Shown piece by piece: positions 13,304 through 29,647 of a stretch of 30,000 nt of DNA. Each line of letters opens with the position of its first letter. Positions within the stretch are counted from its first letter, which is position 1. This stretch comes from Dickeya oryzae. GTDB lineage: Bacteria; Pseudomonadota; Gammaproteobacteria; Enterobacterales; Enterobacteriaceae. A model generated the notes under the pieces. It was not told the origin of the DNA, did no database searches, and was given only the letters and a program-made list of their open reading frames with translations. Made by a program: the position numbers and the translations under genes. The stretch is from positions 205,503 to 235,502 of the forward strand of contig NZ_ML762922.1 in NCBI RefSeq assembly GCF_009372235.1. The letters are read 5' to 3'.

Positions 13304-14986
13304 TTATACGTGCAGGGTGGTACCTGAAATCGCGGACGCCACGGTGTCGGCTTGCGACACGACCAGACCCAAACGCTGGATGATGTCCTGTCGCAACAGA
13401 TATTTCCTGATTTTCCCTGACGCGGTGCGGGGCAGATGGTCAATCACCACCAGATGCTCGGGGTATTTATACTTGGCGACACGCTTGCGGCCGAAAAAAG
13501 CGATCACCTCTTCCAGTATCAGCGTATGGTAGGGTTCCTTCAGTACGACGTAAGCGCAGGTACGTTCGCCCAGGCGCTCATCCGGCATGGCAACAACACC
13601 CGCATCACGCACCCGTGGGTGTTGCAAGAGAATTTCCTCCACCTCCCGACTGCTGATGTTTTCACCGCCACGGACAATAATGTCCTTCTTCCGACCGGTG
13701 ATCTTGATATAGCCCGCCTCATCCATACGGCACAAATCACCACTGTAATACCAGCCTTCGTCGTCCAGCGCTCTCGCCGTCAGTTCAGGTTCGTCCAGAT
13801 AGCCCATAAACACCTGGGGGCCACGGGAAGCCTCCTCCCCTTCATCACCGCAAGGTACTGTCTGCCGATGCTTATCAACCACCCGAATTTCAACACCAGC
13901 GACAGCCGTGCCATCGGTATTAACCACGCGGGACAGCGGATCATCCAGCTTAACCACAGCGTGGGGCGAGCTTTCCGTCGCACCATACACACTCAGCAGC
14001 TTGATGCCAGCTTGCAGACAGTCGCGGGTGATTTTTTTCGGGATCGTGGTGCCGCCGCACAGGAAAAAGCGCAGTGACGACAGATCGTAAGGGTGCTGCT
14101 GTACGGTACACAGCAAGTCATAGACGAACGGCGTCGCCCCCAGTACGCAGGTACAGCGCTCCCGTTCCAGTAAGGTGAGGCAGTGTGTCGGATTGAAGAT
14201 ATCCAGCAGCACACTGTGGCCCCCAATCAAGAATGGCAGGGTGACGCCGTGCAGAAACCCCGTCGCGTGCGCCAGCGGTGCTGGCATCAGGATGGTGTCC
14301 AGCCAGTTCAGATTAAGAGTGGCAGCGTAAGCTCGCTCACTGGCGAGAATATTGTTGTGGGTCAGCATTACTCCCTTGGGTACGCCTTCCGTGCCGGAGG
14401 TGAACAACACCGCAGCCAGTTCGTCACCGTTGACGCTGACCGGTTGCGCCAGCGGTAGGTAGTCCTGCAACAGTTGGCTAAGCGCTGGCGTCGAGGTCGC
14501 GGGTGCCAGTTTATCCACCGCTACCAGATGCTCTAAATACGGCAGTTGCTCGCGCAATGGCGTAATCAGTTCCAGCGGGCTGCTGTTTTTGAACCAGGTC
14601 GGCACAAACAACATGCGCGCCTGACTCTTGTTAAGAGTCCAGATCAACTCCGTCTCACGGTAGGCAGGCAGCAGCGGAACCGATACCGCGCCGACTTTCA
14701 GGCAGGCCAGATAGATTAACGTGAACTCGCTCCAGCCGGGAAGCTGGAACGCCACCCGGTCGCCGGGCATAATACCGCAAGCCAGCAAATACGCGGCCAG
14801 GCTCGCGGCAGCGCGGTCCAGTTCGGCGTAGGTATAGGTCGCACCTTGATTGTCGATAACGGCAATTTTGTCAGGTGCCGCCTTTACCGACTGGTGCCAG
14901 TAATCGCCAAGCGACGCGTCCCCCCAGTACCCCAGCCGCCGATAGCGCTCGCGGCGTTCGGCGTTAAATTTTATTGTGACCGTCAT
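13304..14986 (-). CDS. fadK: Short/medium-chain acyl-CoA synthetase FadK (YdiD)
   Basis: 560 aa: MTVTIKFNAERRERYRRLGYWGDASLGDYWHQ...VLFTSGTEGVPKGVMLTHNNILASERAY...GWYYSGDLCRMDEAGYIKITGRKKDIIVRGGENISSREVE...PRTASGKIRKYLLR. Colinear with E. coli FadK, and last gene of the ydiQRST-fadK arrangement. Confidence 0.93.
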   Translation of the reverse strand: MTVTIKFNAERRERYRRLGYWGDASLGDYWHQSVKAAPDKIAVIDNQGATYTYAELDRAAASLAAYLLACGIMPGDRVAFQLPGWSEFTLIYLACLKVGAVSVPLLPAYRETELIWTLNKSQARMLFVPTWFKNSSPLELITPLREQLPYLEHLVAVDKLAPATSTPALSQLLQDYLPLAQPVSVNGDELAAVLFTSGTEGVPKGVMLTHNNILASERAYAATLNLNWLDTILMPAPLAHATGFLHGVTLPFLIGGHSVLLDIFNPTHCLTLLERERCTCVLGATPFVYDLLCTVQQHPYDLSSLRFFLCGGTTIPKKITRDCLQAGIKLLSVYGATESSPHAVVKLDDPLSRVVNTDGTAVAGVEIRVVDKHRQTVPCGDEGEEASRGPQVFMGYLDEPELTARALDDEGWYYSGDLCRMDEAGYIKITGRKKDIIVRGGENISSREVEEILLQHPRVRDAGVVAMPDERLGERTCAYVVLKEPYHTLILEEVIAFFGRKRVAKYKYPEHLVVIDHLPRTASGKIRKYLLRQDIIQRLGLVVSQADTVASAISGTTLHV

Positions 14987-15142
14987 GATGTTATCTCTGT
15001 TTTATACACGGCCGCGCTATCGTGAAAGGCTTGCACGGTATCGAGCCATTCCATCATCCATCACCGACACGACGACCTCTCGTTGCAGGTGAGCACAGAC
15101 CAGACAGAACGACTGGCTGGCCCCACTGCTGACGTGAACGTC

Positions 15143-15436
15143 TCAGCCAAAACGGAACTCGATACCGAACGTGCCCTGGGGATACTCCCATTTTTCCAGA
15201 ATCGTATCGCCGCACAGTACCCGACAGGTGCCACACTCCAGGCAGCCAGCGTAATCAAAGTGGATATTGCCTTCGCCGTCCTGCTTATAAAGCCCCGCCG
15301 GGCAGGCTTTCACCAATTTGTTGAACTGCTCTTGCGCCGGTTTATCCATCAGCACGATATGCGGATTGCCTTCATCAACATGGAATTTGTTGATGCCCAG
15401 TTTGACGTCAACATTGACACTATTTTCGTTGCTCAT
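15143..15436 (-). CDS. ydiT: FixX-like ferredoxin-like protein YdiT
   Basis: 97 aa: ...KACPAGLYKQDGEGNIHFDYAGCLECGTCRVLCG...WEYPQGTFGIEFRFG. ATGA overlap with the ydiS stop (15433-15436). Confidence 0.93.
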   Translation of the reverse strand: MSNENSVNVDVKLGINKFHVDEGNPHIVLMDKPAQEQFNKLVKACPAGLYKQDGEGNIHFDYAGCLECGTCRVLCGDTILEKWEYPQGTFGIEFRFG

Positions 15437-16722
15437 AGCGCGGTCGCTCCCTTGATGCCATCTTTCAATAGATTCATCAGTCCCACCTGTTTGGCACGAC
15501 CCAGGATTTTTGAGCGCATGGATTTGCTGGGGCCACCATCAATAATGAACATGTCGCTCATGATGTCGGCTATCATGCGCGGGTACTGGGTGAACATACG
15601 CGGGTTTTCCATCAGTGCTGGCAGCTTGCGGTAGCGGTGCATGTCTTGTAGCACGAAGCTCTGCTCCAGAGTCTTGCGGTATCCGGCCAGCCCATCGGCG
15701 GAAAAGTCCTGCCTGTTTTTCGCGTCAATGGCGGTCAATGCCGCTGCCTCTGCTGATGCGATGGCCAGGTCCATTCCCCGCACGGTATACCCCAGATTGA
15801 GGCACAGCCCCGCGGCGTCACCCACGATCATCACACCATCGCCCGCCAGTTGCGGCACCATATCCAGCCCCCCTTCCGGTACCACATGCGCGGAATACTC
15901 CCGCAGAGTGCCCCCTTGAATCAGCGGTCGGATAGCCGGGTGCTGCTTAAAATCTTCCAGCATCTGCGGCACGCTCTTGGTGGCGTGATCGATATCGCCC
16001 AAGCCACAGACCAGCCCCAATGAAATCGTATCCCGGTTGGTGTAAAGGAAGCCGCCACCCATCAGGCCGTTTGATGGCGATCCGGCAAACAGCCAGGCCG
16101 CGCCTTCGCCCGCGACGAGAGTAAAGCGGTCTTCAATCACAGAGGACGGCAGTGCAATCAGCTCTTTAACACCGACCGCATAATGGTGCGGTGATGACGG
16201 CTGTACCATGCCGATAGAACGCCCCAGCAGCGAATTGACACCTTCGGCCAGAATCACGATGTTGGCTTCCAGTACGTCGTCACCCGCCTGTACGCCGACT
16301 ACCCGGTTGCCCTCGCGGACCAGAGAATCGACCCGCACGCCGGGAATAAACTGTGCGCCCGCTGCTTCCGCTTTTTCCATCAGCCACGGGTCAAACAAAT
16401 TGCGCAATACGGTGTAGGAAGCCTTCGATGCGATATCTGGCTGTTCGCTGTGGTAATCCATCGTGATCGCGCTTTCTTCAGTGAGAAAGGAGATTTTTTC
16501 CCGGGTCACCTTGCGTTCGACAGGCGCCTCCTGCGCAAAGCCCGGCATAATCTTCTCCAGACTGTGCGCATAAAGACGCCCACCGGTCATGTTTTTGCTG
16601 CCCGCCGAGTTGCCACGCTCAATCACCAACACGTCCAACCCGGCTTTCGCCATCACATACCCGGCCACACAACCGGCGACACCCGCACCGACCACGATGG
16701 CATCAAATTTTTCTTCCGACAT
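15433..16722 (-). CDS. ydiS: FixC-like FAD-dependent oxidoreductase (ETF:quinone oxidoreductase-like) YdiS
   Basis: 429 aa: MSEEKFDAIVVGAGVAGCVAGYVMAKAGLDVLVIERG (FAD GxGxxG)...SVPQMLEDFKQHPAIRPLI...LLKDGIKGATAL. Colinear with E. coli YdiS. Confidence 0.95.
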   Translation of the reverse strand: MSEEKFDAIVVGAGVAGCVAGYVMAKAGLDVLVIERGNSAGSKNMTGGRLYAHSLEKIMPGFAQEAPVERKVTREKISFLTEESAITMDYHSEQPDIASKASYTVLRNLFDPWLMEKAEAAGAQFIPGVRVDSLVREGNRVVGVQAGDDVLEANIVILAEGVNSLLGRSIGMVQPSSPHHYAVGVKELIALPSSVIEDRFTLVAGEGAAWLFAGSPSNGLMGGGFLYTNRDTISLGLVCGLGDIDHATKSVPQMLEDFKQHPAIRPLIQGGTLREYSAHVVPEGGLDMVPQLAGDGVMIVGDAAGLCLNLGYTVRGMDLAIASAEAAALTAIDAKNRQDFSADGLAGYRKTLEQSFVLQDMHRYRKLPALMENPRMFTQYPRMIADIMSDMFIIDGGPSKSMRSKILGRAKQVGLMNLLKDGIKGATAL

Positions 16723-16771
16723 AGCGTCGTCTCCTTATCCCGCCACCAGCAGGGCGGCGGGGCCAGTGTCG

Positions 16772-17725
16772 TTAACGGGTCAACTGCTCGATCAGGGCGG
16801 GTACGACTTTGTAGATGTCCCCAACCAGACCGTAATCGGCGTATTTGAAGACGGGCGCGTTTTTGTCTTTGTTGATGGCGATGATGGTTTTCGCACTGTT
16901 GCCACCCACCATATGCTGAATCTGACCGGAGATACCCAGCATCAGATAAAGATCGGATTTCAGCAGCACACCAGAAACGCCGATGTAGCGTTCACGCTCC
17001 ATCCAGTGCTCCCCTTCAGCGATAGGACGGGAACAACCGACTTCTGCGCCGATAGCCGTCGCAAGACCTTGCACCATACGCAGGTCATCCTGAGACGCCA
17101 GACCACGACCAACACCGATGACGCGTTTGGCTTTGCTCAAATCAACGCTACTCACGGATTTCGCACGACGCTCCTTGCACAGAATTTCCTGGCGCGGGGC
17201 AACATAGCTGGCCTGATAGACCGGGCAGTCGTGTGCCGGATTGGCAACAGCAGGCTCTAGCGCGCCGGGTGCCAGCGTGACAATGGCGATCGCGGTGTTG
17301 ATCTTCTCGCGGCCAAAGGCCAGACCACCGTACATGCGGTGTTCAGCAAATACGCCGTCATCGCTTATGCTCAGGGTGGTGACGTCGTTGACCACGGCGG
17401 CATTGAGCAGAATGCTAAGGCGTGCAGCCAGCGCTTTGCCGCGTTTGGTGGAGGACAACAGGATAAGCGACGCGGTACGGGCATCGTCTGCCGGTTTTTC
17501 TACGACGGAAGCCAGCGTTTCGGCATAGTTTTCAATACGCTGATTTTGCGCATTCACGCCCAGAACATAGACGGCGTCCGCCCCCAGGGGTTTGACTGCC
17601 GATACTACGTCGTCATGCTGGACCAGCACATCAACGCGCTCCCCCCACTGACGGGCACCGGCCAGTAAATCGGCATAACGTTCGGTGTTGTCGCTGAACA
17701 CCCATACATTGGCTACTTTACTCAT
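16772..17725 (-). CDS. ydiR: Electron transfer flavoprotein alpha subunit (FixB-like) YdiR
   Basis: 317 aa: MSKVANVWVFSDNTERYADL...VGCSRPIAEGEHWMERERYIGVSGVLLKSDLYLMLGISGQIQHMVGG...VGDIYKVVPALIEQL. Confidence 0.95.
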   Translation of the reverse strand: MSKVANVWVFSDNTERYADLLAGARQWGERVDVLVQHDDVVSAVKPLGADAVYVLGVNAQNQRIENYAETLASVVEKPADDARTASLILLSSTKRGKALAARLSILLNAAVVNDVTTLSISDDGVFAEHRMYGGLAFGREKINTAIAIVTLAPGALEPAVANPAHDCPVYQASYVAPRQEILCKERRAKSVSSVDLSKAKRVIGVGRGLASQDDLRMVQGLATAIGAEVGCSRPIAEGEHWMERERYIGVSGVLLKSDLYLMLGISGQIQHMVGGNSAKTIIAINKDKNAPVFKYADYGLVGDIYKVVPALIEQLTR

Positions 17726-17747
17726 GGTGATTGTTCTCCATTCCGGG

Positions 17748-18512
17748 TTAGTTCAGCACTTTCTTCAGATGTTCAGCCAGTTCAGCCACGGCTTCCGGCG
17801 AATCGCTTTCAATGATGATATGTTTGCGCTCAGCCTGGGGCGGTACATGGATAGCAGCCAGTTCAGTAAAGGGGGACCCGGGCGTCCACTCGATATCACC
17901 AGCTTTCCATTGCGTAACCGGTTTTTTCCCGGCACCGAGAATGGCTTTCATGGAAGGAATGCGGGGGACGTTGATATCAGACGCCACGCACAGCACCGCT
18001 GGCAGCGTCAATTCCAGCACCTCAACGTCCTCTTCCAGCGTGCGCTCAACGATGACGCGGTTACCTTCAAGCTGGATGTTGCTGACCGCGTTGACGGTCG
18101 GTACCTGTAGCAGTTCCCCGGCCAGCAGCCCCACCTGCTGGGCGTACAGATCGCCGGAACCTTCACCGAACAGCATCAAATCGAAGCCGATTTTGCCCGC
18201 TGCAGCGGCAATCGCCTGTGCGGTGTCCTTCGGCTGTGCGTTTTCCAGCCGTTCATCCTGCACCAGACAGAGTTCATGCGGGCCACGCGACAGCACGTCC
18301 TTGCGGACTTTGGAGTTTTCGAGATAGTGGCCCCCCACACAGAGTGCCGTTACCTGACCGTCATCCCCAACCAGTTGGGCCGCCGCTTCAATAGCGTTGA
18401 GGTCAAACTGGCTAATCTTGGCATCAGCGTGGTCGAAATTGAGCGTCCGCTCTGCGGTAACCACAATGTCTTGCTCTTCGGGTACCAGCTTGAAGCAGGT
18501 TATAATTTTCAT
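17748..18512 (-). CDS. ydiQ: Electron transfer flavoprotein beta subunit (FixA-like) YdiQ
   Basis: 254 aa from ATG 18512 (SD AGGAG): MKIITCFKLVPEEQDIVV.... Same length as E. coli YdiQ. The track's start at 18530 adds 6 residues and has no SD. Confidence 0.95.
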   Translation of the reverse strand: MKIITCFKLVPEEQDIVVTAERTLNFDHADAKISQFDLNAIEAAAQLVGDDGQVTALCVGGHYLENSKVRKDVLSRGPHELCLVQDERLENAQPKDTAQAIAAAAGKIGFDLMLFGEGSGDLYAQQVGLLAGELLQVPTVNAVSNIQLEGNRVIVERTLEEDVEVLELTLPAVLCVASDINVPRIPSMKAILGAGKKPVTQWKAGDIEWTPGSPFTELAAIHVPPQAERKHIIIESDSPEAVAELAEHLKKVLN

Positions 18513-18530
18513 GGTATCTCCTATCGGCAA

Positions 18531-18677
18531 TCACAACGATTTGAGTGGGCAACATATTAAGTGGGCAACATAGGCGTCCTTACCTGAATGGTGATCCCCC
18601 AACAGGTCCATAAAACAATTCAGACGGATGCCGCTCGCTGGCAATAAATAATGTGGAGAGATGGGTTGTTGACTCAT
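18531..18677 (-). CDS. Hypothetical 48-codon upstream ORF ending 18 nt before ydiQ. Unverified.
   Basis: My own translation of the - strand: ATG at 18677, preceded by GGAGAAAAAC (SD-like, 6-nt spacing). Product MSQQPISPHYLLPASGIRLNCFMDLLGDHHSGKDAYVAHLICCPLKSL, stop TGA at 18533-18531. It is below the ORF-track length cut-off. I recognise no homology. Confidence 0.25.
   Translation of the reverse strand: MSQQPISPHYLLPASGIRLNCFMDLLGDHHSGKDAYVAHLICCPLKSL
18544..18572. repeat. Tandem direct repeat AGTGGGCAACATA x2 (16-bp period), 32-60 bp upstream of the ydiQ ATG
   Basis: Read directly: 18544-18556 and 18560-18572 are identical 13-mers separated by TTA. The 16-bp units match at 13 of 16 positions. 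Confidence 0.85.
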
Positions 18678-18995
18678 GTTTTTCTCCGGTTAAACAGGCA
18701 TGGTTAAACATTAATAGCGCGATATCCCCCATCACCGAATGAGAAATACCGTGGCGTAAATAAAAATCGGTTCTCTCAAGGTGAGATAAAACTCATACCT
18801 CAGTTCATTCGTGTTAAACAACGCAACGCGTTGGTTCTGCAAAGAAAAAGCCTCTGGATAGAACAACTAATAAAGCGAAACTGAAGCATGAAGAATATAT
18901 GCAGATATACTGATACCGACGCACGGTAAATACGACATGATAATATGTTTTAGTTACCAACTATCTTGCAAAAAAAAGTGTTAACTTGCTCAATG

Positions 18996-19011
18996 TGTTA
19001 ATTAATTGTTT
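18996..19011. promoter_or_regulatory. ArcA-box-like sequence in the ydiQ/ydiP divergent region
   Basis: GTTAATTAATTGTTT (18997-19011) matches the published ArcA consensus GTTAATTAAATGTTA at 13 of 15 positions, with TGTT direct repeats 11 bp apart. A further TGTTA is at 18979. The AT-rich context makes chance matches plausible. Confidence 0.3.
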
Positions 19012-19423
19012 TATATCCACAGCCATTTCATCAGCCATAAATAAAAAATATGACTTATACACGGCGTTAACACACCAGGCAAAACCATCAATTCATGTGT
19101 GACCGCCATCATAGTTATGATCTTTTTTTCTGATTTTTTGATGTTGATTTACATGAAAAATAAAATATGACTCGAATTGTGAATCTCGTGTATCAATCTT
19201 GTAGATTATTCTTCCATTTTCTCTCACATGCTGACCGTATAATCAGGAGTAGCTTACTCCTCACCGTGCTATTTATCCTGTTGGCAAGCCAACGCACGAT
19301 CTTGCATGACATACCAACAATCTTGTTTTTGCCTGCATATTTCGTGTTATATACTGTCTTCGGTTACTCTATTTCGCCATCCAATAATTGGCTTACGCCT
19401 TACGGTTAACTGTGGAGGTCGTT

Positions 19424-20335
19424 ATGTATCAATGCTGGTTTGATAATAAAACGGATGCTGTTTTTGAAAATGGATTGACACCCAAACTCTCCCGCTATGT
19501 TATTAGCGACGATCCCAACTGGGAATCCGGCCACCATGTACACGAGACCGAAACGGAACTTATCTATGTCAAGAAAGGCGTAGTTAATCTTACCATTGAC
19601 TCATCCAGTTATACCGCACGGACGGGTGATATCATTGCGATAGAGCGCGGTAGCCTGCATACGGTGGCGTCTGACACCTCATCACCCGCCACCACCTACA
19701 CGTGTGCCGTTTATGGCTTTAAAATCAATGGACTGGAAGAAGGCCGCATTATGCAACCCCATTCATGCCCTGTCATTTCCACGGTTAAAAATAAAGAGGT
19801 GATCCGCAGCATTTTTCAGGAACTCAGTGTACTGCTACCACAGAAAAAAACGAATTCACTGCCCCTGGTGTACGATGCATTCAGCTATGCGTTAACTGTG
19901 ATTTATTATGAAAACTTCAAGAATGCTTATCGAAATGATCGGGGGTATATAAGAAAGGATGTGCTTATCAAAGATATCCTGGTTTATTTAAACAATAACT
20001 ATCGAGAAAAAATCACGTTAGAAAATCTGGCAAAAAAATTCCGGGCCAGTGTCAGTTACATCTGTCACGAATTTACCAAAGAATACCATATTTCACCGAT
20101 TAACTATGTTATCAAGCGCCGTATCACAGACGCAAAATTTTCACTGACCAACACCGATCTCTGCCTGAACGAAATATCGTTCAGGGTGGGGTACGATAAT
20201 GTTGATCATTTTACAAAATTGTTTATTCGTCACGTTGGCTGTTCACCGTCTGAATATCGAAAACAGTTCAAAAACGACCTCGATAGCCTGGAATATGTCA
20301 CCCAGCTCGATGACCATTCAGAAATGCTGACGTAA
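19424..20335 (+). CDS. ydiP: AraC-family transcriptional regulator YdiP (N-terminal cupin, C-terminal double HTH)
   Basis: 303 aa from ATG 19424 (SD GGAGG at 19414-19418): MYQCWFDNK...GHHVHETETELIYVKKG (cupin)...ITLENLAKKFRASVSYICHEFTKEY...FRVGYDNVDHFTKLFIRHVGCSPSEYRK. Same length and position as E. coli YdiP, between ydiO and ydiQ. Confidence 0.9.
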   Translation: MYQCWFDNKTDAVFENGLTPKLSRYVISDDPNWESGHHVHETETELIYVKKGVVNLTIDSSSYTARTGDIIAIERGSLHTVASDTSSPATTYTCAVYGFKINGLEEGRIMQPHSCPVISTVKNKEVIRSIFQELSVLLPQKKTNSLPLVYDAFSYALTVIYYENFKNAYRNDRGYIRKDVLIKDILVYLNNNYREKITLENLAKKFRASVSYICHEFTKEYHISPINYVIKRRITDAKFSLTNTDLCLNEISFRVGYDNVDHFTKLFIRHVGCSPSEYRKQFKNDLDSLEYVTQLDDHSEMLT

Positions 20336-20443
20336 ATCGACCGCGTTATCATTAGTAAGCTACCATGATTCGGCACGGGTGATAGAACACACGCTCTGTA
20401 TCCAAACAAGCCAGGCCAATAGCTCTCCACTCAGATAACAGCA

Positions 20444-20477
20444 CACTCAGTTCACACCTCAGGGTGTGAACTGAGTG
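20444..20477. terminator. Perfect 15-bp stem hairpin between convergent ydiP and ydiO. Probable bidirectional terminator.
   Basis: CACTCAGTTCACACC (20444-20458), loop TCAG, GGTGTGAACTGAGTG (20463-20477). It lies 10 nt from the ydiO stop. The flanking U-tracts are weak on both strands. Confidence 0.55.
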
Positions 20478-20486
20478 AATAACCGA

Positions 20487-21638
20487 TTATTTATTCTGGT
20501 AATCTTTCAGAATCTGACGGCCCGCAATATAAATCATGATCTCATCGGTGCCGCCGCCAATTCGCTCACAACGGACATCACGCCAGAAGCGGGAAACACG
20601 CGCATCGTCGGTGTAGCCCAGGCCGCCCATAATCTGTATCGCATCGTCAATAACTTCCAGCGCGGTACGCGCACAGTACAACTTACACAGCGCCGCGCTG
20701 GTACGCAGCGACTGGTGCATATCCGCCTGCCATGCCACCTTCATCACCATATTGCGCATGTTCTCGATTTTTATCGCCATCAGCGCCAGCTTTTCCTGGA
20801 TCATCTGGTTATGGCCGATAGGCTTGCCGAACGCAATGCGCTGGTTGGCGTATCTGGCGGCATCCTCAAACGCGCACTCGGCAAACCCGGTACTGCGCGC
20901 AGCGTTGATCAGGCGTTCCATCTCGAAGTTGTACATCACATTGAGAAAGCCCATGCCTTCTTCGCCGACCCTATCGCTTTCATCCACCTCGACATTGTCC
21001 AGATAGACTTCGCAGGTGCTCAGCATATGCCAGCCGATTTTATGCAGCGGGTTGATTTTGATACCCGGTTTATTCGATTCCACCCACCAGAGGGTGAACG
21101 CTTTTTTCGGATCCTTCGGTTCTGGATCACGCGCCAGTACCAGCATATACGGGTATTCTTTCGCCCCGGTGATGAAGGTTTTCTGGCCATTCAAATACAC
21201 TTTGCCATTTTTGCGCGTATAAGAAGTGGTTGCGCTACTGTTGTCCGAACCCGCGCCCGGTTCAGTCAGCGCCAGCGCATAAGCCGGGTCGCCGGTGGCC
21301 AGCGTGCTTTCCGCCGTTTTACGCAACTGCTCCGCCGAGCCGAACCGCAGCATACTGTGAATGCATTGCCCATTGGTGATAAGAAACGCGGGTGCGCCGC
21401 ATTTTGCCACTTCCATCAGCGCCAGCATCTGGGTGACATAGTCAGCCGGAATGCCGTTATATTCTTCTGGCACGCCCAACAGGGAAATACCGTTGTCAGA
21501 CAACGCTTTCATGAACTCTTTGGGATACGTCCCGGTCTGATCGCATGTCCTGAAATATTCTTCCGGGAAATTATTGGTAATTAACTCGCGAATACTGGCA
21601 AGCAAGAGTTCTTGTTCTTCAGTTAAGGCAAAGTTCAT
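20487..21638 (-). CDS. ydiO: CaiA-like acyl-CoA dehydrogenase / enoyl-CoA reductase YdiO
   Basis: 383 aa: MNFALTEEQELLLASIRELI...ALALTEPGAGSD...YLNGQKTFITGA...IGGGTDEIMIYIAGRQILKDY. Same length as E. coli YdiO. SD AGGAG; 14 nt after the ydiF stop. Confidence 0.95.
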   Translation of the reverse strand: MNFALTEEQELLLASIRELITNNFPEEYFRTCDQTGTYPKEFMKALSDNGISLLGVPEEYNGIPADYVTQMLALMEVAKCGAPAFLITNGQCIHSMLRFGSAEQLRKTAESTLATGDPAYALALTEPGAGSDNSSATTSYTRKNGKVYLNGQKTFITGAKEYPYMLVLARDPEPKDPKKAFTLWWVESNKPGIKINPLHKIGWHMLSTCEVYLDNVEVDESDRVGEEGMGFLNVMYNFEMERLINAARSTGFAECAFEDAARYANQRIAFGKPIGHNQMIQEKLALMAIKIENMRNMVMKVAWQADMHQSLRTSAALCKLYCARTALEVIDDAIQIMGGLGYTDDARVSRFWRDVRCERIGGGTDEIMIYIAGRQILKDYQNK

Positions 21639-21652
21639 CTTCTTTACTCCTA

Positions 21653-23248: not shown

Positions 23249-23284
23249 AGCGACTCCTGACCCAGGCCGAATTGAATTATTTTT

Positions 23285-23371
23285 ATTCAAAAATGAAATA
23301 TACTGACGCAGTGCTAAATAATTTTCTTTGCGTGACATATAAAATAAAAATACACACATTCATTTTTGAAT
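23285..23371. repeat. Perfect 13-bp inverted repeat pair ATTCAAAAATGAA ... TTCATTTTTGAAT, 61 bp apart, in the ydiF upstream region
   Basis: Read directly: 23285-23297 and 23359-23371 are exact reverse complements. They lie 37-123 bp upstream of the ydiF ATG. Confidence 0.8.
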
Positions 23372-23548
23372 GAGGATATATTTACCATTACTTTCATTGC
23401 ACTTAACGTTATCAATTCAGACCATTGATAATATGCGAGCGTTCGAGCCATAGTAATAATACTATTTCTCTCATCAATGATGCTATTTGATATTTATTTT
23501 ATTCAGGCACCATAGTAGTACCTGAATAAATACGCCAATGCCTTTCAA

Positions 23549-24307
23549 TCAGGCTTCATGCAAAATTCTCAGTACGTCTCTCAAATCTTTGATAGCTATC
23601 TGGCCGGGCGCGGACGCTTTTTTCAGGGCGCCGAACGTTGCCGACGACCCGAATACTTCCCCCGCCAGACGTGAAATTACCCCGTCTTTCGACATCGACA
23701 TGGTGATGATCGGACGATCCGCATATTTCTCAGACATTTCCTGCGTGGCCAACAGCAACGTCAACACGTCGCTCTTGTTTTGTGGCATCAATGCAATCTT
23801 GGGAATATCAGCACCCAGCTCCTGCATTTTGCACAAGCGTTTGACGATCTCTTCCTTCGGTGGCGTTTTGTGGAAATCATGGTTGGACATCACGACCTTG
23901 ATTCCGTTGGCATGCGCGTGAGCAATGGTGTCACTCACCAGTTGGTCACCGGTAAACAACTCCAGATCAATCATGTCCACAAGGCCACTGTCGATTAGCT
24001 GTTTATTCAGGGCAATATAGGCTTGCGGCGAAATATCTTTCTCACCGCCTTCTTTAGCGGTACGGAACGTAAAGAGAATCGGTTTCTCACGAATGATGGT
24101 GCGCAGCTTGTGCGCGGCATCCAGCACGCTGTCGATCTGTTCCACGCCATCAAAATGATCGATGCGCCATTCCAGAATATCGAAATCAAAATCCCGGTAG
24201 TAATGCGCTTCCGACTCTACGGAAGACACATCTTTTCCCATTAATGACACGATGATTTTGGGGGCACCTTCCCCTATCACCACACTCTTCACGGTTACGG
24301 TATTCAT
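23549..24307 (-). CDS. aroD: 3-dehydroquinate dehydratase, type I
   Basis: 252 aa: [26 protein letters not shown]...[11 protein letters not shown]...[12 protein letters not shown]...[19 protein letters not shown]...[40 protein letters not shown]. Colinear with E. coli AroD, including the Schiff-base Lys context PKIA. Confidence 0.95.
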
Positions 24308-24404
24308 GTTGTTCCCTTAAAATTTATCCCCTGACCAGCACCGCCTGAGCGAACAGCGTGCTTCAGGCGGCCACCGCTGGGCAACTAACAGCCGACGCGG
24401 ACCA

Positions 24405-25271
24405 TCAGGCACCAAATCCCATCGCTTTTTTAACGTATTCCAACGGGAAGTCTTTTCCGGTCCAGAGTTTGAACTGCTCTGCCCCCTGCCACAGCAACAT
24501 ACCGTAACCATCAACGGTCTTACAGCCAACTTCCTGTGCCATCTGCAACAATTTGGTGATATGCGGGTTATATACGCATTCGGTAACCAACAAGCCTGGG
24601 CGCAACAAGGATTTATCCGTAACGATGCTCTCGTTTTCCAGCGGTTTCATCCCAAGCTTGGTGCCGTTGGTCAGGATGTCGGCGGTAGCGATAGCATCAG
24701 CGAACGCCTGTTGATCACCCAGATCGTGCACGGTAACCATGCAGTCGGTGTTGTCGTTCACGCGTTTGGCAAAGGCGAGCGCCTTTTCGTAAAACTCATC
24801 ACGACGATTGAACAGCTTGATGGCCTTAATGCCTTCAATCGCCGCCTGAGCACCGATCGCGGTCGACGCGCCCCCGGCTCCGACCAGCACCATAGTTTTG
24901 CCTTTGATATCAAAGCCGCTTTCCTTGATGGCGCGGATATGCCCGGTACCGTCGGTGTTATACCCTTTGAGGTAACCATCATCGTTGACGATGGTATTTA
25001 TCGCGCCGACCAGTTTGGCTGCTGGTGTCAATTCATCCACATAATCGCAGGCCAGCTGTTTATTGGGCATGGACACACCAGTACCACGCATTTTTAGCGC
25101 TTTAAGCCCTGCTATCGCCTGAGGGAAGGTGGTGTTATCCACTTCAAATGCCATATAGGTATAAGGTAACCCAACTTCTTCCAGCGCTTTATTCTGCATT
25201 TCCGGTGACAGGCTGTGTCTGATTGGATAAGCCATTAACCCAATCAGTTCATATTTTGCAGTTACATCCAT
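24405..25271 (-). CDS. ydiB: NAD(P)-dependent quinate/shikimate dehydrogenase YdiB
   Basis: 288 aa: [46 protein letters not shown]...[53 protein letters not shown]. Nearly identical N-terminus to E. coli YdiB. SD AAGGAG. Confidence 0.95.
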
Positions 25272-25340
25272 TATAAACTCCTTACGCTATAAATATATTC
25301 TTGCCGCCTGCGCCATTATTATGATGACGAGGGGTTCTGC

Positions 25341-26609
25341 TTATGAATGTGATGGTCTATTACTGGCATTCTTCATCGAAAACATGTTTTCCCCCATCCG
25401 CACATCGTTTTCAGGAATATTGAACACTTTGTAATAGCGAACGAAAACGATAAATGCGGTGAGCAGCGATACCACGGCAAAACCAATATCCAGCAGAATG
25501 ATGTATTTCAATTCAATCTTGGATAAATAACCGGTGATGATAGGAATCACGAAATTAGCCAGGCCGCCCATCAACATATAGAGACTGGTGACTTTTGCTT
25601 TGCTTTTTGGGAAGAACTCGGACATCACAGAAACGCCCAGTTGTAATAACCCACCGGCCGCAGAGAAGCCGATAACAAATGCGCCGACGTTACAAACCAG
25701 TGCGGAGGGATACAGATAAATCACCGTGCTGGCCACCACTGCCAAGGCAGAGTTGAACACGTTGGCCCAGACTGGGCGAACCATGCTTTTCAACAGCAGA
25801 GCGAAGACGAATACGCACACCAACGATCCCATGCTGTAATAAGAAATGGTCTTCAACGCGTCGGTTTCCGCCATACCGGCATAGGCTACGGCATATTTCG
25901 GCATCCAGACCACGATGACGTAAAAGGTGGAGAAGATGGCAACGCCGAATACAATCGATGCCACACCTTCCAACCAGACCAACGGCTTCTGATTCATCTG
26001 CGGCAAGTCTTTGATGGCATTGGCATCTGCCGTCTGGCTCGGGAATTTACTCCTTACTATAAGCAGCGATACCAGCAGGAACGCGATCCCCGGCAGGACA
26101 ATGCCGTAGCCGTACCAGATATTGCTGGTGAGCAGGTAGCCGACCAGGACCGGATAGAACATTTGTCCGAAAGAAATCATGGCCTTGAGCAGAATAACGG
26201 CCGAACCGGACGTTTTGGGATAAGCCTCCATCAATGCCGGATAAGCGCCGGTATCCAAGGCAGCGTTGGCCACCCCCACGCAGACCGCGAGAATAAAAGC
26301 TACGATCAGGTTGGGGCTGGAAGGAATACCGAAAAAGAACAACACATACAGCGCTACCCCGATAAGAATTGACACGCGGCGGCCGAACTTATCGGAAATC
26401 ACCCCGAAGAACAAAATACTGACCAATCTTCCCAGGCCAATACCTGAAATAAGATAGGCGATGCCTGCATTATCAGTTCCGAACTTTGCCGCCAGACTCG
26501 TCATATTCTGCGCCAGGGTGATGACGCTAATGCCATGAAGAAAATAGCTTAGATATATGCCGATAACAGCTAATAAAAATGGCGAATTGAAGGCCTTGTT
26601 CTGGCTCAT
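25341..26609 (-). CDS. ydiN: MFS transporter YdiN
   Basis: 422 aa: MSQNKAFNSPFLLAVIGIYLSYFLHGISVITLAQNMTSLAAKFGTDNAGIAYLISGIGLGRLVSILFFGVISDKFGRR.... Colinear with E. coli YdiN. SD GGAGAG. Confidence 0.92.
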   Translation of the reverse strand: MSQNKAFNSPFLLAVIGIYLSYFLHGISVITLAQNMTSLAAKFGTDNAGIAYLISGIGLGRLVSILFFGVISDKFGRRVSILIGVALYVLFFFGIPSSPNLIVAFILAVCVGVANAALDTGAYPALMEAYPKTSGSAVILLKAMISFGQMFYPVLVGYLLTSNIWYGYGIVLPGIAFLLVSLLIVRSKFPSQTADANAIKDLPQMNQKPLVWLEGVASIVFGVAIFSTFYVIVVWMPKYAVAYAGMAETDALKTISYYSMGSLVCVFVFALLLKSMVRPVWANVFNSALAVVASTVIYLYPSALVCNVGAFVIGFSAAGGLLQLGVSVMSEFFPKSKAKVTSLYMLMGGLANFVIPIITGYLSKIELKYIILLDIGFAVVSLLTAFIVFVRYYKVFNIPENDVRMGENMFSMKNASNRPSHS

Positions 26610-26634
26610 GCTTCTCTCCGTTTATAGTGATTTT

Positions 26635-26702
26635 TTCATTGCACAGTTTTCATTGCATCATGTTCATCGCACAAGTCGTGCCTTGCTGCACAAGTTGCAC
26701 AA
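26635..26702. repeat. Phased short direct repeats just upstream of the ydiN start: TTCATTGCA / TTCATTGCA / TTCATCGCA at an exact 14-bp period, then three (T/C)GCACAA copies
   Basis: Read directly: 26635-26643, 26649-26657 and 26663-26671, then GCACAAGT at 26669 and 26688 and TGCACAA at 26696. They lie 26-93 bp upstream of the ydiN ATG. Confidence 0.8.
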
Positions 26703-26736
26703 ATTGTTCCGGCAGTTTTATTTCTCTTATTTACTC

Positions 26737-26767
26737 CCCATGAGTTATACGCCCATGAGTTATACGC
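26737..26767. repeat. Perfect 15-bp tandem duplication (CCCATGAGTTATACG)x2 in the ydiN / LysR-gene intergenic region
   Basis: Read directly: 26737-26751 equals 26752-26766, and the next base also matches. This produces the PMSYTPMSYT artefact in track ORF 26557..26937. Confidence 0.9.
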
Positions 26768-27455
26768 TTCGTAAAATATTGCTAAATTACTCTCTGTATT
26801 TAATGTACTCAGCAAGGGAAACAATGAACACGCAATATAAGGTTTTCGTTGCAAACTTTATTGCAGGGAACGACAGACCTCATTCAGTCAGCGTGTTGAA
26901 GATTTGTTTTCTCTTTTACAAAATCACCACATTATGATGCCAAAAAGCACAACCCTAAACATCAACAAGACAGAATAAAATAATGCGACACACTTCAAAT
27001 TTATTTTTATGATTCGTGTGTGATAAGATTTTTTTCATGCCAACTATCGCCACGATAAAAAAACAGCACATTGTTATTGTGAGCCAGCTGGCATTAATAC
27101 ATAAAAGAGGAAAATGAGATGAAGTGACACCTCTCTCTCCCTCTTCGACTTCACGAGGCGAGAGATAACAGAGCCGCTCTCAAGTAACACCCTATTTACC
27201 TTTTCCTCCTGTATTTCATATTCAAAAAGACATGCTATTTTGCAGTTCACCATAATAATGTTGCAAACAGGACAAAGCGGCCTCGTTTTTACGGTCATAC
27301 CCGTGTACACCATGACATAAATCCCACAGATAATCTGATTCTCATATATTTGCGGTATGTGGGTATTATCAACCGTATCGTTAGGCTACGCTCGTAACCA
27401 ATACGGTAGTACCACCGGCAGGGATAGGCGCTTCATTGATCTGACGAGAACCCGA

Positions 27456-28358
27456 ATGAACTTAAAACAACTACATTATTTCAAACGACTGGCAGAAAAA
27501 CAGCACTACACGGAAGCGGCATCCAGCCTGAACATTACCCAACCCTCGTTGAGCCATGCCATCTCTGAGCTGGAAAAAGAACTGGGGGTCGCTCTGTTTG
27601 AACGGCATGGGCGCAACGTGCGAATTACCCAGAGCGGGAAACTCTTTTTACCCTATGTCGAAGGTGCGCTGCTTGAATTGGAAAATGGCCGCACGGCGCT
27701 GAGGAAAATGTGCGCGCCCCACGATGAAATCATCAATCTGGCGTTTATTTACACCATGGGGGAAACCGTGGTGCCGCAATTGATCGATCGTTTTATTCAT
27801 ATTCCAGAAAATACGCATAAACGCTTCGCTTTTTTTCAGGGCACCACACTGTCGATCGTGCAGGATCTCAAGGAAGATAAATTTGACATGGCGCTGTGCT
27901 CCCATATTCCAGACGAGTCAGACATTGAATTTATCCCGGTGATCACTCAGGAACTGGTGCTGGTGACCTCACGCGACCACCCACTGGCGCAACGCCATCG
28001 CAGTGAAATCGATCTGGAAGACGCCATCGCCTATCCGTTCATCTTTTTCTCCCAGAAAAGCGGGCTGCGGCAGTTTATCGACAAAATCTTCATGCAGAAA
28101 AAACTGATCCCAGAAATTGCCTGCTATGTGGAGGAGGATACGGCGATGGTGGGCCTGGTTAGCATCAACTACGGTATCGCGATCATGCCACGTATCAGCA
28201 CACTGTCGCACTCCAACGTACAGGTGATGAAAATTCGCAATCCAGGCCAGACGCGCTACGTCTATCTGGCGACACACAAAGAACGGACGCTGTCGCCAGC
28301 AGCGGAATCTTTTAAGCAGTTCATCCTAAGCACCTGCCCGTCGATAGCATTGGCATGA
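27456..28358 (+). CDS. LysR-type transcriptional regulator (LTTR), divergent from ydiN-ydiB-aroD
   Basis: 300 aa from ATG 27456: MNLKQLHYFKRLAEKQHYTEAASSLNITQPSLSHAISELEKELGVALFERHGRNVRITQSG (canonical LTTR wHTH), plus a substrate-binding-domain-like C-terminus. The track's start at 27357 adds 33 non-LTTR residues. Confidence 0.9.
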   Translation: MNLKQLHYFKRLAEKQHYTEAASSLNITQPSLSHAISELEKELGVALFERHGRNVRITQSGKLFLPYVEGALLELENGRTALRKMCAPHDEIINLAFIYTMGETVVPQLIDRFIHIPENTHKRFAFFQGTTLSIVQDLKEDKFDMALCSHIPDESDIEFIPVITQELVLVTSRDHPLAQRHRSEIDLEDAIAYPFIFFSQKSGLRQFIDKIFMQKKLIPEIACYVEEDTAMVGLVSINYGIAIMPRISTLSHSNVQVMKIRNPGQTRYVYLATHKERTLSPAAESFKQFILSTCPSIALA

Positions 28359-28417
28359 CGGTGTCCGACGTCAGAGAACTGAAATAAACGAAAGTGGCCG
28401 TAACCTCCCGGCGGGCC

Positions 28418-29647
28418 TCAGGCACCAATCTGATTCATGCTGATGGAACAGCGACGGGCTTCCATATCGCGGTAGCCAATAAACAGTGCGGTCAGAAAAC
28501 CAGCCGCCGCCAGGCCAACGTCAAACCACATAATGCTGGCGATGCTGAGTTGCGACAACCGGGCAGTGACCAACGGAATCGTAAAGGTCGCCAGACTCCC
28601 CGCGCTGTAATAAATGGCGGTGGCTTTCCCTTTGGCATTGGGAAAACGCCGCGCCATCAGCGTTAACCCCAGTTGTAACACCCCTCCCGCCGCAGAAAAA
28701 CCGATCACAAAGGCAAACACGACCACCACCTTAACACTGGGATACAGGCACACCACCAACAACGCGATGAAAGACAGGAAGGTGCAACCTATCAGCACCA
28801 GACTCGAATGGGTACCGTTCCTCGCCAGTCCCGCGATAATCACCACGCCAGACAGCGAACCGATGGTGTAGAGACTCAGCAACTTGATTGCCATTTCATA
28901 AGGCATGCCCGCCACAAACTGCCCGTACTGCGACAACCATTGACTGATCAGGTAGAACGTTGCCATAGCGATGTAACCGTAGAAGGTAAAACTGGCGAGA
29001 TCCAGCATGGCACAGGCATGGTGTTCTTGCTCCGCCAGCACTGGCTTAATCTGGGCGTCGGCCCGTTTGGCCTTATCGGTTTGCGGGTGATGCGGCGGAA
29101 ACGGATACCGGAACAGGCACACTGCATTTAACATCATGATGCTTGCCGCCAGCAGGAACGACCAGCCGAACCAAAGATTAGCCCACACCAGTACACTTAT
29201 CACCAACGGCAGAAGAAACTGCCCACCGGAGACAAACGCTTTGATCAGGATATTGGCGGTACCCGGACTGTTGGGAAACGCCTCCATCAGTGACGGATAA
29301 GTCCCGGAATCCAGAAAACTGTTGGCCACGCCAGCCAGTAACCCAAAGCAGTAAGCCAGGATAATATTGGTCGTGCCGAGGATGCCCAGGAAAAACACCA
29401 GATAGCATGCGATACCAAGATAGATAAAAGGCTTACGACCAAATCTATCGGACAGCGTACCGGCAATCATTAACAGGCTTAACCGACCAATCCCCAACGA
29501 AGAAATGACCACAGATACCCCAGCGGCATCGGTGTGCCATTGCTGTTCCAGATGGTGCATGTTCAAGCTCATCAGGATAACGCCCATGCCATGTACCAGA
29601 TAATTGAGGTACAAGCCAAATGCCGTTGGTATATAGGGATTTTTCAT
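28418..29647 (-). CDS. ydiM: MFS transporter YdiM (paralogue of YdiN)
   Basis: 409 aa: MKNPYIPTAFGLYLNYLVHGMGVILMSLNMHHLEQQWHTDAAGVSVVISSLGIGRLSLLMIAGTLSDRFGRKPF...PSLMEAFPNSPGTANILIKAFVSGGQFLLPL. Colinear with E. coli YdiM. Confidence 0.9.
   Translation of the reverse strand: MKNPYIPTAFGLYLNYLVHGMGVILMSLNMHHLEQQWHTDAAGVSVVISSLGIGRLSLLMIAGTLSDRFGRKPFIYLGIACYLVFFLGILGTTNIILAYCFGLLAGVANSFLDSGTYPSLMEAFPNSPGTANILIKAFVSGGQFLLPLVISVLVWANLWFGWSFLLAASIMMLNAVCLFRYPFPPHHPQTDKAKRADAQIKPVLAEQEHHACAMLDLASFTFYGYIAMATFYLISQWLSQYGQFVAGMPYEMAIKLLSLYTIGSLSGVVIIAGLARNGTHSSLVLIGCTFLSFIALLVVCLYPSVKVVVVFAFVIGFSAAGGVLQLGLTLMARRFPNAKGKATAIYYSAGSLATFTIPLVTARLSQLSIASIMWFDVGLAAAGFLTALFIGYRDMEARRCSISMNQIGA

Follow-up and report, generated by a model that had tools for sequence, protein, structure and literature searches.

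The ydi block of the plant soft-rot bacterium Dickeya oryzae, a 16-kb run of 13 genes at positions 13304-29647 of the 30-kb stretch of DNA analyzed here (hereafter the window), resembles several systems that have already been described. One of these is the cai/fix system of Escherichia coli (caiTABCDE plus fixABCX), with which it shares, in its proposed logic, a transporter, a CoA-recycling transferase, a priming AMP-ligase, a reductase of the acyl-CoA dehydrogenase (ACAD) type, and a probable route of electron delivery similar to that of FixABCX, for which YdiQRST are the paralogues. In cai/fix, a dehydration step makes the enoyl substrate. The two systems differ in that the ydi transferase, YdiF, belongs to family I whereas CaiB belongs to family III, in that dehydration by the ydi proteins is proposed to occur on the free acid (by AroD) rather than on the CoA ester (by CaiD), and in that the ydi transporters are members of the major facilitator superfamily (MFS) rather than of BCCT; the substrate class would also be different, namely hydroaromatic acids. 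Likewise similar is the carABCDE system for caffeate respiration in Acetobacterium woodii, which acts on a plant α,β-unsaturated acid with a transferase, a priming ligase, an ACAD-type enoyl-CoA reductase, and an electron transfer flavoprotein (ETF). The car system differs from the ydi proteins in that its ETF is a bifurcating one that works with NADH and ferredoxin and in that an ETF:quinone oxidoreductase (ETF-QO) is absent, and the likeness is one of generally known pathway logic rather than of compared sequences.

Other described systems act on shikimate itself. According to a reference cited in PMC13304725, the route from shikimate to cyclohexanecarboxyl-CoA, which leads to ansatrienin and ω-cyclohexyl fatty acids and is the sole CoA-dependent route from shikimate described so far, includes a shikimoyl-CoA synthetase and an ACAD-family flavoenzyme. 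However, that route is biosynthetic, operates in actinomycetes, relies on enoyl reductases of the short-chain dehydrogenase/reductase (SDR) type, and is without an ETF, an ETF-QO, a transporter, a dehydroquinase, or a quinate dehydrogenase. In Eggerthella lenta, the net reaction is the one proposed here, from shikimate to hydroshikimate as an anaerobic electron sink in the gut (Little et al.), but it is carried out by a single secreted or periplasmic-type flavin reductase that acts on the acid in its free form, without CoA chemistry. Finally, the aerobic qui/qsu systems that operate with pca genes share a quinate/shikimate dehydrogenase, a dehydroquinase, an MFS transporter, and a LysR-type regulator with the ydi block, but the window is without dehydroshikimate dehydratase, protocatechuate dioxygenase, or β-ketoadipate genes, and YdiF is not PcaIJ.

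In the ydi block, a quinate/shikimate module is joined to a CoA-transferase/ACAD/ETF module. We propose that these two modules are probably functionally coupled. More tentatively, and with a chance that we place slightly short of even, the 13 genes might encode an anaerobic CoA loop, similar to those of cai/fix and car, that reduces shikimoyl-CoA. The genes, as located from six-frame open reading frames (ORFs) and NCBIfam profile scans, are the following.

13304-14986, minus strand: fadK (ydiD), AMP-forming medium-chain acyl-CoA ligase, 560 aa
15143-15436, minus strand: ydiT, FixX-like ferredoxin, 97 aa
15433-16722, minus strand: ydiS, FixC-like ETF:quinone oxidoreductase, 429 aa
16772-17725, minus strand: ydiR, ETF alpha subunit, FixB paralogue, 317 aa
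17748-18512, minus strand: ydiQ, ETF beta subunit, FixA paralogue, 254 aa
19424-20335, plus strand: ydiP, AraC-family regulator with AraC-type helix-turn-helix matches, 303 aa
20487-21638, minus strand: ydiO, CaiA-like acyl-CoA dehydrogenase/enoyl-CoA reductase, 383 aa
21653-23248, minus strand: ydiF, fused family I CoA-transferase, 531 aa
23549-24307, minus strand: aroD, type I 3-dehydroquinate dehydratase, 252 aa
24405-25271, minus strand: ydiB, NAD(P)-dependent quinate/shikimate dehydrogenase, 288 aa
25341-26609, minus strand: ydiN, MFS transporter with MFS family matches, 422 aa
27456-28358, plus strand: LysR-family regulator gene, 300 aa
28418-29647, minus strand: ydiM, MFS transporter with MFS family matches, ydiN paralogue, 409 aa

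An earlier, sequence-only reading of this stretch had counted twelve genes, although its own list names 13, and each gene that it named is located where it had been placed (ORF list, NCBIfam). The 11 structural genes are on the minus strand, and the two regulator genes (ydiP and the LysR gene) are on the plus strand. The tight junctions to which it had drawn attention are also present, including gaps of 14 nt between ydiF and ydiO (21639-21652) and 22 nt between ydiQ and ydiR (17726-17747), and an ATGA overlap of ydiS and ydiT at 15436-15433. For four genes, the longest ORF begins too far upstream, and the likely starts (ydiF 23248, ydiQ 18512, ydiP 19424, and LysR 27456) match the gene calls of identical genomes. 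A GGAG is located 6 nt upstream of the ydiF start. The ydiQ ORF reaches a TTG at 18530, whereas the alignment to model NF008998 begins at residue 7 and identical genomes call a protein of 254 aa.

Seven enzymes of the window pass NCBIfam models built on E. coli proteins (scores here and below are bits over the curated cut-off of equivalog or subfamily models). These are FadK (NF004758, the "medium-chain fatty-acid--CoA ligase" equivalog, 979.5/736), YdiS (NF007450, 866.9/466), YdiR (NF008884, 585.3/528), YdiQ (NF008998, 456.2/338), YdiO (NF008997, 766.2/537), AroD type I (TIGR01093, 270.1/139.3), and YdiB (NF009390, 629.7/349). YdiF carries the Pfam CoA_trans domain (PF01144) and matches PDB entries 2AHU, 2AHV, and 2AHW at 1085.9 bits, the first of which is titled "putative enzyme ydiF" (the E. 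coli YdiF structure). YdiT, YdiP, YdiN, and YdiM were identified by 66-74% tblastn identity and by an order identical to that of the annotated E. coli genes. When the ETF set is compared with the Fix models, the FixA subfamily (335.8/219) and FixC (636.4/610) are above their cut-offs and FixB (320.4/549) and FixX (147.5/166, for YdiT) are below; YdiQ, YdiR, and YdiS score better on their own YdiQRS models than on the Fix models. The next-best families for YdiO are CaiA (440.9, below the cut-off of 540) and the acryloyl-CoA reductase AcrC (231.6). YdiO is therefore best classed by its scores as a paralogue of CaiA and not as CaiA itself, and family scans found no CaiB (family III CoA-transferase), CaiD hydratase, or CaiT BCCT antiporter in the window. 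YdiO also falls short of the two cyclohexane-1-carbonyl-CoA dehydrogenase equivalogs (NF043006, 188.8/650; TIGR03207, 143.9/575.35).

Of the parts expected for quinate or shikimate use by qui/qsu systems, the window holds the quinate/shikimate dehydrogenase (YdiB) and the dehydroquinase (AroD). The sequence-only reading had called this module "qsu-like." Both enzymes are indeed there, but the label is unsafe because aroD is biosynthetic in E. coli. That reading had also stated that no dehydroshikimate dehydratase or ring-cleavage dioxygenase accompanies the module. This holds throughout the 30-kb window, among whose ORFs NCBIfam and Pfam scans found no 3-dehydroshikimate dehydratase, protocatechuate dioxygenase, or β-ketoadipate genes. 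Assignment of YdiF as a PcaIJ-type 3-oxoadipate CoA-transferase was considered and rejected, as the protein fails both models (49.1/128.5 and 38.4/243.55) and no pca genes or thiolase lie alongside.

The block is an orthologue of a known E. coli cluster and is thus not new as an object. The genes ydiM-ydiN-ydiB-aroD-ydiF-ydiO-ydiP-ydiQRST-fadK of E. coli K-12 agree in order and orientation with those of Dickeya, and the only difference in order is the extra LysR gene that is inserted between ydiM and ydiN in Dickeya. Protein identities between the window and E. coli range from 66 to 93% (FadK 74, YdiS 77, YdiO 93, YdiF 89, YdiB 87, AroD 72, YdiT 74, YdiP 66, and YdiN 74%), and YdiM is 68% identical to its Escherichia/Citrobacter counterparts. 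The region is matched in 5359 of 5426 complete E. coli genomes. A scan for YdiO with one genome per species yielded 62 loci, onto which the 13 window proteins were mapped by tblastn. The complete order, ydiM-(LysR)-ydiN-ydiB-aroD-ydiF-ydiO-ydiP-ydiQRST-fadK, is present with varying flanks in at least 10 enterobacterial genera (Escherichia, Citrobacter, Kosakonia, Pseudocitrobacter, Intestinirhabdus, Serratia, Yersinia, Brenneria, Pectobacterium, and Symbiopectobacterium). Absent in E. coli, the LysR gene is confined to a Pectobacteriaceae/Yersinia group (Dickeya, Musicola, Brenneria, Pectobacterium, Symbiopectobacterium, and Yersinia).

Conservation is uneven along the cluster. The median identity across genera is 88% for YdiB, 90% for YdiF, and 93% for YdiO, versus 68-78% for the other cluster genes. 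The corresponding between-genus ranges are 85-89%, 88-94%, and 91-98%, versus 64-88% for AroD, the ETF subunits, FadK, the transporters, and YdiP. The joint slow evolution of YdiB, YdiF, and YdiO could be a weaker hint that their functions are coupled. A metagenome scan with a 13-sequence YdiF alignment added no diversity, in that all 80 loci kept were 88-90% identical and E. coli-like; ydiB, aroD, ydiF, and ydiO were present together in 71 of the 80.

More distant loci carry the evidence that the two modules travel together. In two Sutterella species (Betaproteobacteria), ydiN-ydiB-aroD-ydiF-ydiO is divergent from ydiQRST, with tblastn identities of 45-83%. These Sutterella loci have no ydiP, ydiM, or fadK, and the flanks in the two species are mutually unrelated. 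One Sutterella YdiO sequence is common to several Sutterella records and occurs on at least 1000 contigs. In the uncultured L073/L074 loci (42% GC), a single co-directional operon has the order ydiN-ydiF-ydiO-ydiQ-ydiR-ydiB-aroD-ydiS-ydiT-HAD, such that ydiB-aroD lie between ydiQR and ydiST. All gaps in this operon are 59 nt or less except for one of 140 nt, and a YdiP orthologue (49%) is encoded upstream of the shuffled operon in L073. In L070/L071, SDH (shikimate dehydrogenase)-ydiF-ydiO is followed by a gene of the ketopantoate reductase (KPR) family, a VOC gene, and then a second SDH gene and a YdiM-like transporter gene. Similarly, L166 carries a YdiF relative (64%), SDH, a type I dehydroquinase, and a YdiM-like MFS protein together with a non-orthologous ACAD (29%) and an ETF.

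Even the type of dehydroquinase can change. A type II dehydroquinase, which is non-homologous to AroD, occurs in an operon with YdiF relatives of 58-66% identity in Enterococcus raffinosus, Sedimentibacter, Anaerovirgula, L075, and L077. In four of these (the E. raffinosus megaplasmid, Sedimentibacter, Anaerovirgula, and L075), the gene for the YdiF relative (58-64%) comes first in a compact operon that also holds MaoC, KPR-family, VOC, and aroQ genes. L077 adds an ACAD, SDH, and a dehydroshikimate dehydratase resembling QuiC (which scores 622.9 bits, short of the cut-off of 1200), L167 adds a FadK-like ligase (43%) next to an ACAD and SDH, and in L160 a shikimate kinase gene adjoins. L158 (Hominifimenecus sp.) has no dehydroquinase, SDH, or shikimate kinase in the context examined. 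A related association has been described for the transporters, as about 75% of the members of the YdiM/YdiN family, some of them in Firmicutes, are encoded beside genes of the shikimate pathway (PMC10588857).

We define the YdiF clade here by at least 58% identity to YdiF together with the presence, no more than 10 kb away, of a gene for a dehydroquinase, SDH, or shikimate kinase, and the window has both features. Among 14 distinct contexts, 9 include a dehydroquinase, and a shikimate-type gene of some kind lies within 10 kb in 12. With generous background rates and the contexts treated as independent, this corresponds to a binomial tail of about 1e-14, but the contexts share ancestry, so this figure overstates the significance and to that extent tempers our proposal. 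In a plasmid collection, there is a gap in the YdiF matches between 58% and 46% identity. Among four control homologues of 46% identity or less, three (Clostridium perfringens, Listeria, and Cetobacterium) have no shikimate-type neighbor. In the fourth, from Paraburkholderia (45%), an SDH-family gene overlaps the stop of the transferase gene, so the association has no sharp boundary.

The linkage survives transfer between classes, shuffling of the operon, and replacement of the dehydroquinase by a non-homologous enzyme, and for this reason we consider it likely that the quinate/shikimate module and the CoA-transferase/ACAD/ETF module are functionally coupled. A restriction of the linkage to close relatives, which had been set beforehand as grounds for abandoning the idea, is not what is seen, given that Sutterella, the uncultured L073/L074 lineage, and Firmicutes all keep the link. 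The central proposal of the sequence-only reading, that of one O2-independent and CoA-dependent system for hydroaromatic acids, thus gains support from gene contexts at distant loci.

How such a system might operate is suggested by its parts list, which appears to map one-to-one on the cai/fix and car loops (transporter, transferase, priming ligase, ACAD-type reductase, and ETF). From this we infer a substrate, a redox direction, an electron route, and a role for FadK as follows. YdiN and YdiM would take up the acid. Quinate would be converted via 3-dehydroquinate and 3-dehydroshikimate to shikimate by YdiB (NAD-linked) and AroD, a sequence that would be redox-neutral overall. Shikimate is a cyclohex-1-ene-1-carboxylate, and its CoA thioester is therefore an α,β-enoyl-CoA. 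YdiF would move CoA onto shikimate, and the CaiA-like flavoenzyme YdiO would then reduce the C1=C2 bond of shikimoyl-CoA. The electrons would pass from the quinol pool or ferredoxin to YdiST (FixCX-like), then to YdiQR (the FixAB-like ETF), and finally to YdiO. YdiF would hand the CoA to the next substrate molecule as dihydroshikimate leaves, and FadK would prime the loop at the expense of ATP, as CaiC and CarB do. Expression is presumably controlled by YdiP and, in Dickeya, also by the extra LysR protein.

The reductive direction is favored because the closest characterized relatives act reductively (CaiA and AcrC for YdiO, FixAB and AcrAB for YdiQR, and FixCX for YdiST). A weaker hint regarding the substrate may come from FadK, whose second-best family is cyclohexanecarboxylate-CoA ligase (TIGR03208, 422.6/792.3, below the cut-off). 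Sutterella wadsworthensis grows with shikimate as an electron acceptor by reducing the enoate to hydroshikimate (Little et al.). This shikimate respiration fits a reductive loop but is not proof of one, and RNA-seq with shikimate was conducted in that study for E. lenta and H. filiformis only, not for S. wadsworthensis. The evidence for the putative substrate consists of gene context and one organism-level phenotype. The same literature reports that gut bacteria make hydroshikimate from shikimate and that shikimate is detected in faeces.

Several facts weigh against a loop of this kind. In the window, a 300-nt spacer parts aroD from ydiF, and ydiQRST-fadK is probably a separate unit. The versions of the cluster in Sutterella and L073 are without FadK, the presumed priming enzyme. 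In vitro, YdiF acts on short acyl-CoAs plus acetate, and FadK prefers C6-C8 fatty acids. In E. coli, aroD also serves biosynthesis, as the only dehydroquinase known to do so. With shikimate, E. lenta induces a flavin reductase of the periplasmic type and not an ACAD (Little et al.), and S. wadsworthensis has many such flavin reductases, so the phenotype (strain DFI.4.78) may not stem from this cluster. Furthermore, published genetics give ydiFO, ydiQRST, and fadK to anaerobic fatty-acid oxidation and, reportedly, Salmonella ydiQRSTD to butyrate use. The sequence-only reading had stated that the substrate of this enzyme set is not established, which overlooks this published work on anaerobic fatty-acid and butyrate oxidation.

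These genetic data are the strength of the alternative that survives best, which we nevertheless judge to be unlikely. It holds that ydiF-ydiO, ydiQRST, and fadK are the front end of anaerobic β-oxidation for short- and medium-chain fatty acids including butyrate, and that ydiN-ydiB-aroD are unrelated neighbors. FadK or YdiF would activate the acid, YdiO would oxidize the acyl-CoA, and electrons would flow via ETF and ETF-QO to menaquinone and to nitrate or tetrathionate. Reviews and primary papers describe ydiFO, ydiQRST, and fadHIJK as an anaerobic β-oxidation pathway, ydiO is reported to be important for fatty-acid use in a fadE mutant, and ydiQRSTD is reported to serve butyrate utilization in Salmonella Typhimurium and to have been lost by Salmonella Typhi. 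Within the window, a ligase (FadK, which passes the medium-chain fatty-acid--CoA ligase equivalog) and an ACAD with ETF and ETF-QO are the parts of β-oxidation that are present, separate transcription units are plausible, and the Cetobacterium YdiF homologue (45%) resides in a classic butyrate cluster. However, family scans found no hydratase, dehydrogenase, or thiolase in the cluster. β-Oxidation also leaves unexplained the company of ydiB and aroD with ydiF-ydiO in Sutterella, their interleaving in L073/L074, and the swap to a type II dehydroquinase in Firmicutes. The core that is kept across architectures is YdiN-YdiB-AroD-YdiF-YdiO-YdiQRST, whereas FadK, the supposed activator, is dispensable. 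If the system is built to accommodate C7 acids, turnover of fatty acids could be incidental to it. The fatty-acid and butyrate phenotype may reflect a real side activity or a second role.

A coupled system might also run in the oxidative direction rather than reduce shikimoyl-CoA. Reduced alicyclic acids, such as dihydroshikimate or hydroxylated cyclohexanecarboxylates, would be imported, activated by FadK or YdiF, and dehydrogenated by YdiO to shikimoyl-CoA, with electrons passing through YdiQRST to quinone. The acids would thereby be salvaged into the common aromatic pathway, which quinate would join via YdiB and AroD. Gene context fits this proposal equally well, and it accounts for the location of the cluster's enzymes with YdiB and the biosynthetic aroD. 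ETF and ETF-QO proteins usually pass ACAD electrons to quinone, gut bacteria make hydroshikimate, and shikimate is detected in faeces. Nonetheless, we hold salvage to be quite improbable. The closest characterized relatives (CaiA/FixABCX and AcrABC) are reductive, as is the sole organism-level phenotype, that of Sutterella, and the Firmicute variants have hydratase- and reductase-type partners rather than biosynthetic genes.

Less credible still is a route like that of Streptomyces or Alicyclobacillus, in which FadK or YdiF would make shikimoyl-CoA, YdiO would act wholly or in part as an FAD-dependent dehydratase/reductase, and stepwise removal of hydroxyl groups would yield a (hydroxy)cyclohexanecarboxylate. 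To judge from a title cited in PMC13304725, cyclohexanecarboxyl-CoA biosynthesis involves a shikimoyl-CoA synthetase and a dehydratase of the ACAD type that depends on FAD. The second-best family of FadK and the weak matches of YdiO to cyclohexane-1-carbonyl-CoA dehydrogenase models point the same way, but the scores are far under the cut-offs (422.6/792.3 for FadK and 188.8/650 for YdiO). Moreover, family scans of the window found no ChcA-like enoyl-CoA reductase of the SDR type and no additional dehydratase, and a dedicated ETF and ETF-QO point to net redox chemistry rather than dehydration.

Complete anaerobic degradation of quinate or shikimate as a carbon source by opening of the ring as a CoA ester, similar to the Bad pathway, is very improbable for Dickeya and E. 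coli, in that the Firmicute MaoC, KPR-family, and VOC proteins and the occasional IolD-like thiamine pyrophosphate (TPP) enzyme and aldehyde dehydrogenases do look like enzymes for hydration, oxidation, and ring cleavage, but the Dickeya/E. coli cluster is without a hydratase, 3-hydroxyacyl-CoA dehydrogenase, ring hydrolase, or thiolase by family scans, and E. coli is not known to grow on quinate or shikimate.

The Firmicute operons themselves deserve comment. They are found at L161 10004-13763 (the E. raffinosus megaplasmid), L076, L075, L159, L160, and L158, and consist of a YdiF-clade transferase, MaoC, a KPR-family protein, a small VOC protein (about 125-130 aa), and, in most cases, aroQ. 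A LysR or LacI regulator gene is often nearby, and an IolD-like TPP enzyme and an aldehyde dehydrogenase are sometimes encoded as well. The partners of the transferase either act on CoA esters (the MaoC hydratase) or have folds that could do so (the VOC protein), and the operon looks like an undescribed CoA-dependent pathway for hydroaromatic acids or cyclitols. In L158, four genes of the carboxylesterase/feruloyl-esterase type and an MFS gene (1155-6990) are located directly upstream of the CoA-transferase-MaoC-KPR genes, and it is tempting to speculate, from the Pfam names of these esterases, that they might release quinate from chlorogenate-type esters. Orthology between the Dickeya LysR protein and those encoded beside the Firmicute operons was considered and rejected, as the identities of 28-31% are ordinary for the family. 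Taken broadly, the ydi cluster and its transferred copies could be a system for hydroaromatic respiration, with the YdiF clade marking a broader and so far undescribed group of anaerobic, CoA-dependent pathways for hydroaromatic acids that would include a possibly ring-opening Firmicute operon. We offer this extension as a conjecture that leans toward the doubtful side.

A full-text search found no paper that ties ydiF, ydiO, or ydiQRST to shikimate or quinate, although its coverage was incomplete and an earlier description is possible. The term "3-hydroshikimate" in an E. coli Nissle preprint looks from its context like a slip for 3-dehydroshikimate and was not used. The expectation in the sequence-only reading of an "undescribed pathway" goes too far, given that a CoA-dependent Streptomyces route that leads from shikimate through shikimoyl-CoA to cyclohexanecarboxyl-CoA is described (in a reference cited in PMC13304725), and the conversion of shikimate to hydroshikimate by gut bacteria is also reported. 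The cluster is likewise known, and the functional hypothesis, which comparative evidence partly supports, was not encountered in the literature searched.

The genes ydiB, ydiF, ydiO, ydiP, ydiQRST, ydiN, and ydiM are of long-standing unsettled function in the best-studied bacterium. E. coli is not known to grow on quinate, so there has been no good explanation for its retention of a quinate/shikimate dehydrogenase. The plant acids quinate, shikimate, and chlorogenate are plentiful in the rotting tissue colonized by Dickeya as well as in the gut, where E. coli, Salmonella, Citrobacter, and Sutterella reside. If a reductive shikimoyl-CoA loop does exist, about ten E. coli y-genes would gain a function and the long-puzzling YdiB would be explained. 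This CoA-dependent electron-sink or salvage route would represent a new class of anaerobic respiratory substrate for Enterobacterales, and the butyrate phenotype of Salmonella ydiQRSTD would merit re-examination. It would also name a source of gut hydroshikimate and provide a genetic handle on hydroshikimate- and cyclohexanecarboxylate-type metabolites in gut metabolomics. The hypothesis is open to test with existing Keio mutants and liquid chromatography-mass spectrometry.

Three noncoding features of the block are relevant to its expression.

13215-13245, minus strand: terminator-like hairpin with a 14-bp stem and a T-run, 59 nt past the fadK stop
18513-19423: divergent control region between ydiQ and ydiP, 911 nt, AT-rich (39% GC), with a CRP-like site TATGATGGCGGTCACA
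23249-23548: spacer between aroD and ydiF, 300 nt, AT-rich (about 32% GC)

The hairpin past fadK is the strongest terminator-like site within 12500-30000, and it likely ends a ydiQRST-fadK transcription unit. In a promoter and terminator scan of the window, counts were no higher than in shuffled controls, and this was the only convincing terminator. The region between ydiQ and ydiP is 911 nt long in Dickeya and 316 nt in E. coli. Counterparts of its CRP-like site with 1-2 mismatches are present in Brenneria, Pectobacterium, and Yersinia, and none were found in the Enterobacteriaceae examined. An FNR-like site in the same region (19144-19157, 1 mismatch) was set aside because such sites occur in chance-level number and this one is not kept in E. 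coli; anaerobic control is not claimed from it. The spacer between aroD and ydiF has an imperfect hairpin (23498-23530) just past the aroD stop and no canonical terminator, and it probably holds the ydiF promoter region. The divergent region between ydiN and the LysR gene is 846 nt long and AT-rich, and it includes a perfect 15-nt tandem duplication, CCCATGAGTTATACG (two copies), at 26737-26766. No Rfam family reached its gathering score anywhere in the window, and the long intergenic regions are without a known riboswitch or sRNA.

Within the block, the G+C content is far from uniform, with values between 0.41 (around ydiP) and 0.58 (in fadK). Among Dickeya strains (L002-L007), identity to the window copy is just 91-94% for AroD and 97-100% for all neighboring proteins, which suggests that aroD (23549-24307) may be a locally divergent or recombined allele. 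The rest of the window carries cysZ, cysK, ptsH, ptsI, crr, a CpxAR-like two-component pair, cysM, and a Dyp peroxidase gene, as well as cytosine-permease-like, LuxR-type, and sfsB-like genes. On the fadK side, the neighbors in Dickeya are thus an sfsB-like gene, a LuxR gene, the permease gene, the Dyp peroxidase gene, cysM, the two-component pair, and crr-ptsIH-cysKZ, whereas in E. coli the neighbor is ppsA. The part between crr and the ydi block (6153-12598) holds genes that E. coli does not carry at this position. They are the CpxA/CpxR-like pair (6153-8254, under the CpxAR cut-offs), cysM, the genes for a Dyp-type peroxidase (9457-10371) and for an NCS1 transporter resembling cytosine permeases (10575-11954), and a small regulator gene.

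Individual lineages have also altered the cluster or reused its parts. In E. coli strain 2018-05-2CC (L001 22831-24585), IS1A truncates ydiN, neither ydiM nor ydiL is present, and the genes directly next are rprA and ydiK. In Enterobacter sp. EA-1 (L069 6580-17455), the ydiF, ydiO, and ydiR matches are short or split (ydiR in two), ydiS is unmatched, and AroD is 44% identical, which looks like pseudogenization of the whole system in one lineage. A third cai/ydi-like cluster is present at about 4700-20600 in Budvicia aquatica (L060) and at a second locus of Citrobacter youngae (L061), and it also adjoins ydiM in Citrobacter sp. NCU1 (L059). This third cluster in L060/L061 has no shikimate genes and no YdiF. 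Its first half encodes an AraC protein, a family III CoA-transferase, an MFS transporter, and a divergent ACAD. Its second half encodes an ACAD (69% identical to YdiO), YdiQRST paralogues (65-77%), an MFS transporter, a FadK paralogue (66-68%), and a desulfoferrodoxin-like protein. This arrangement shows that the ACAD/ETF/ligase chassis is reused behind different front ends.

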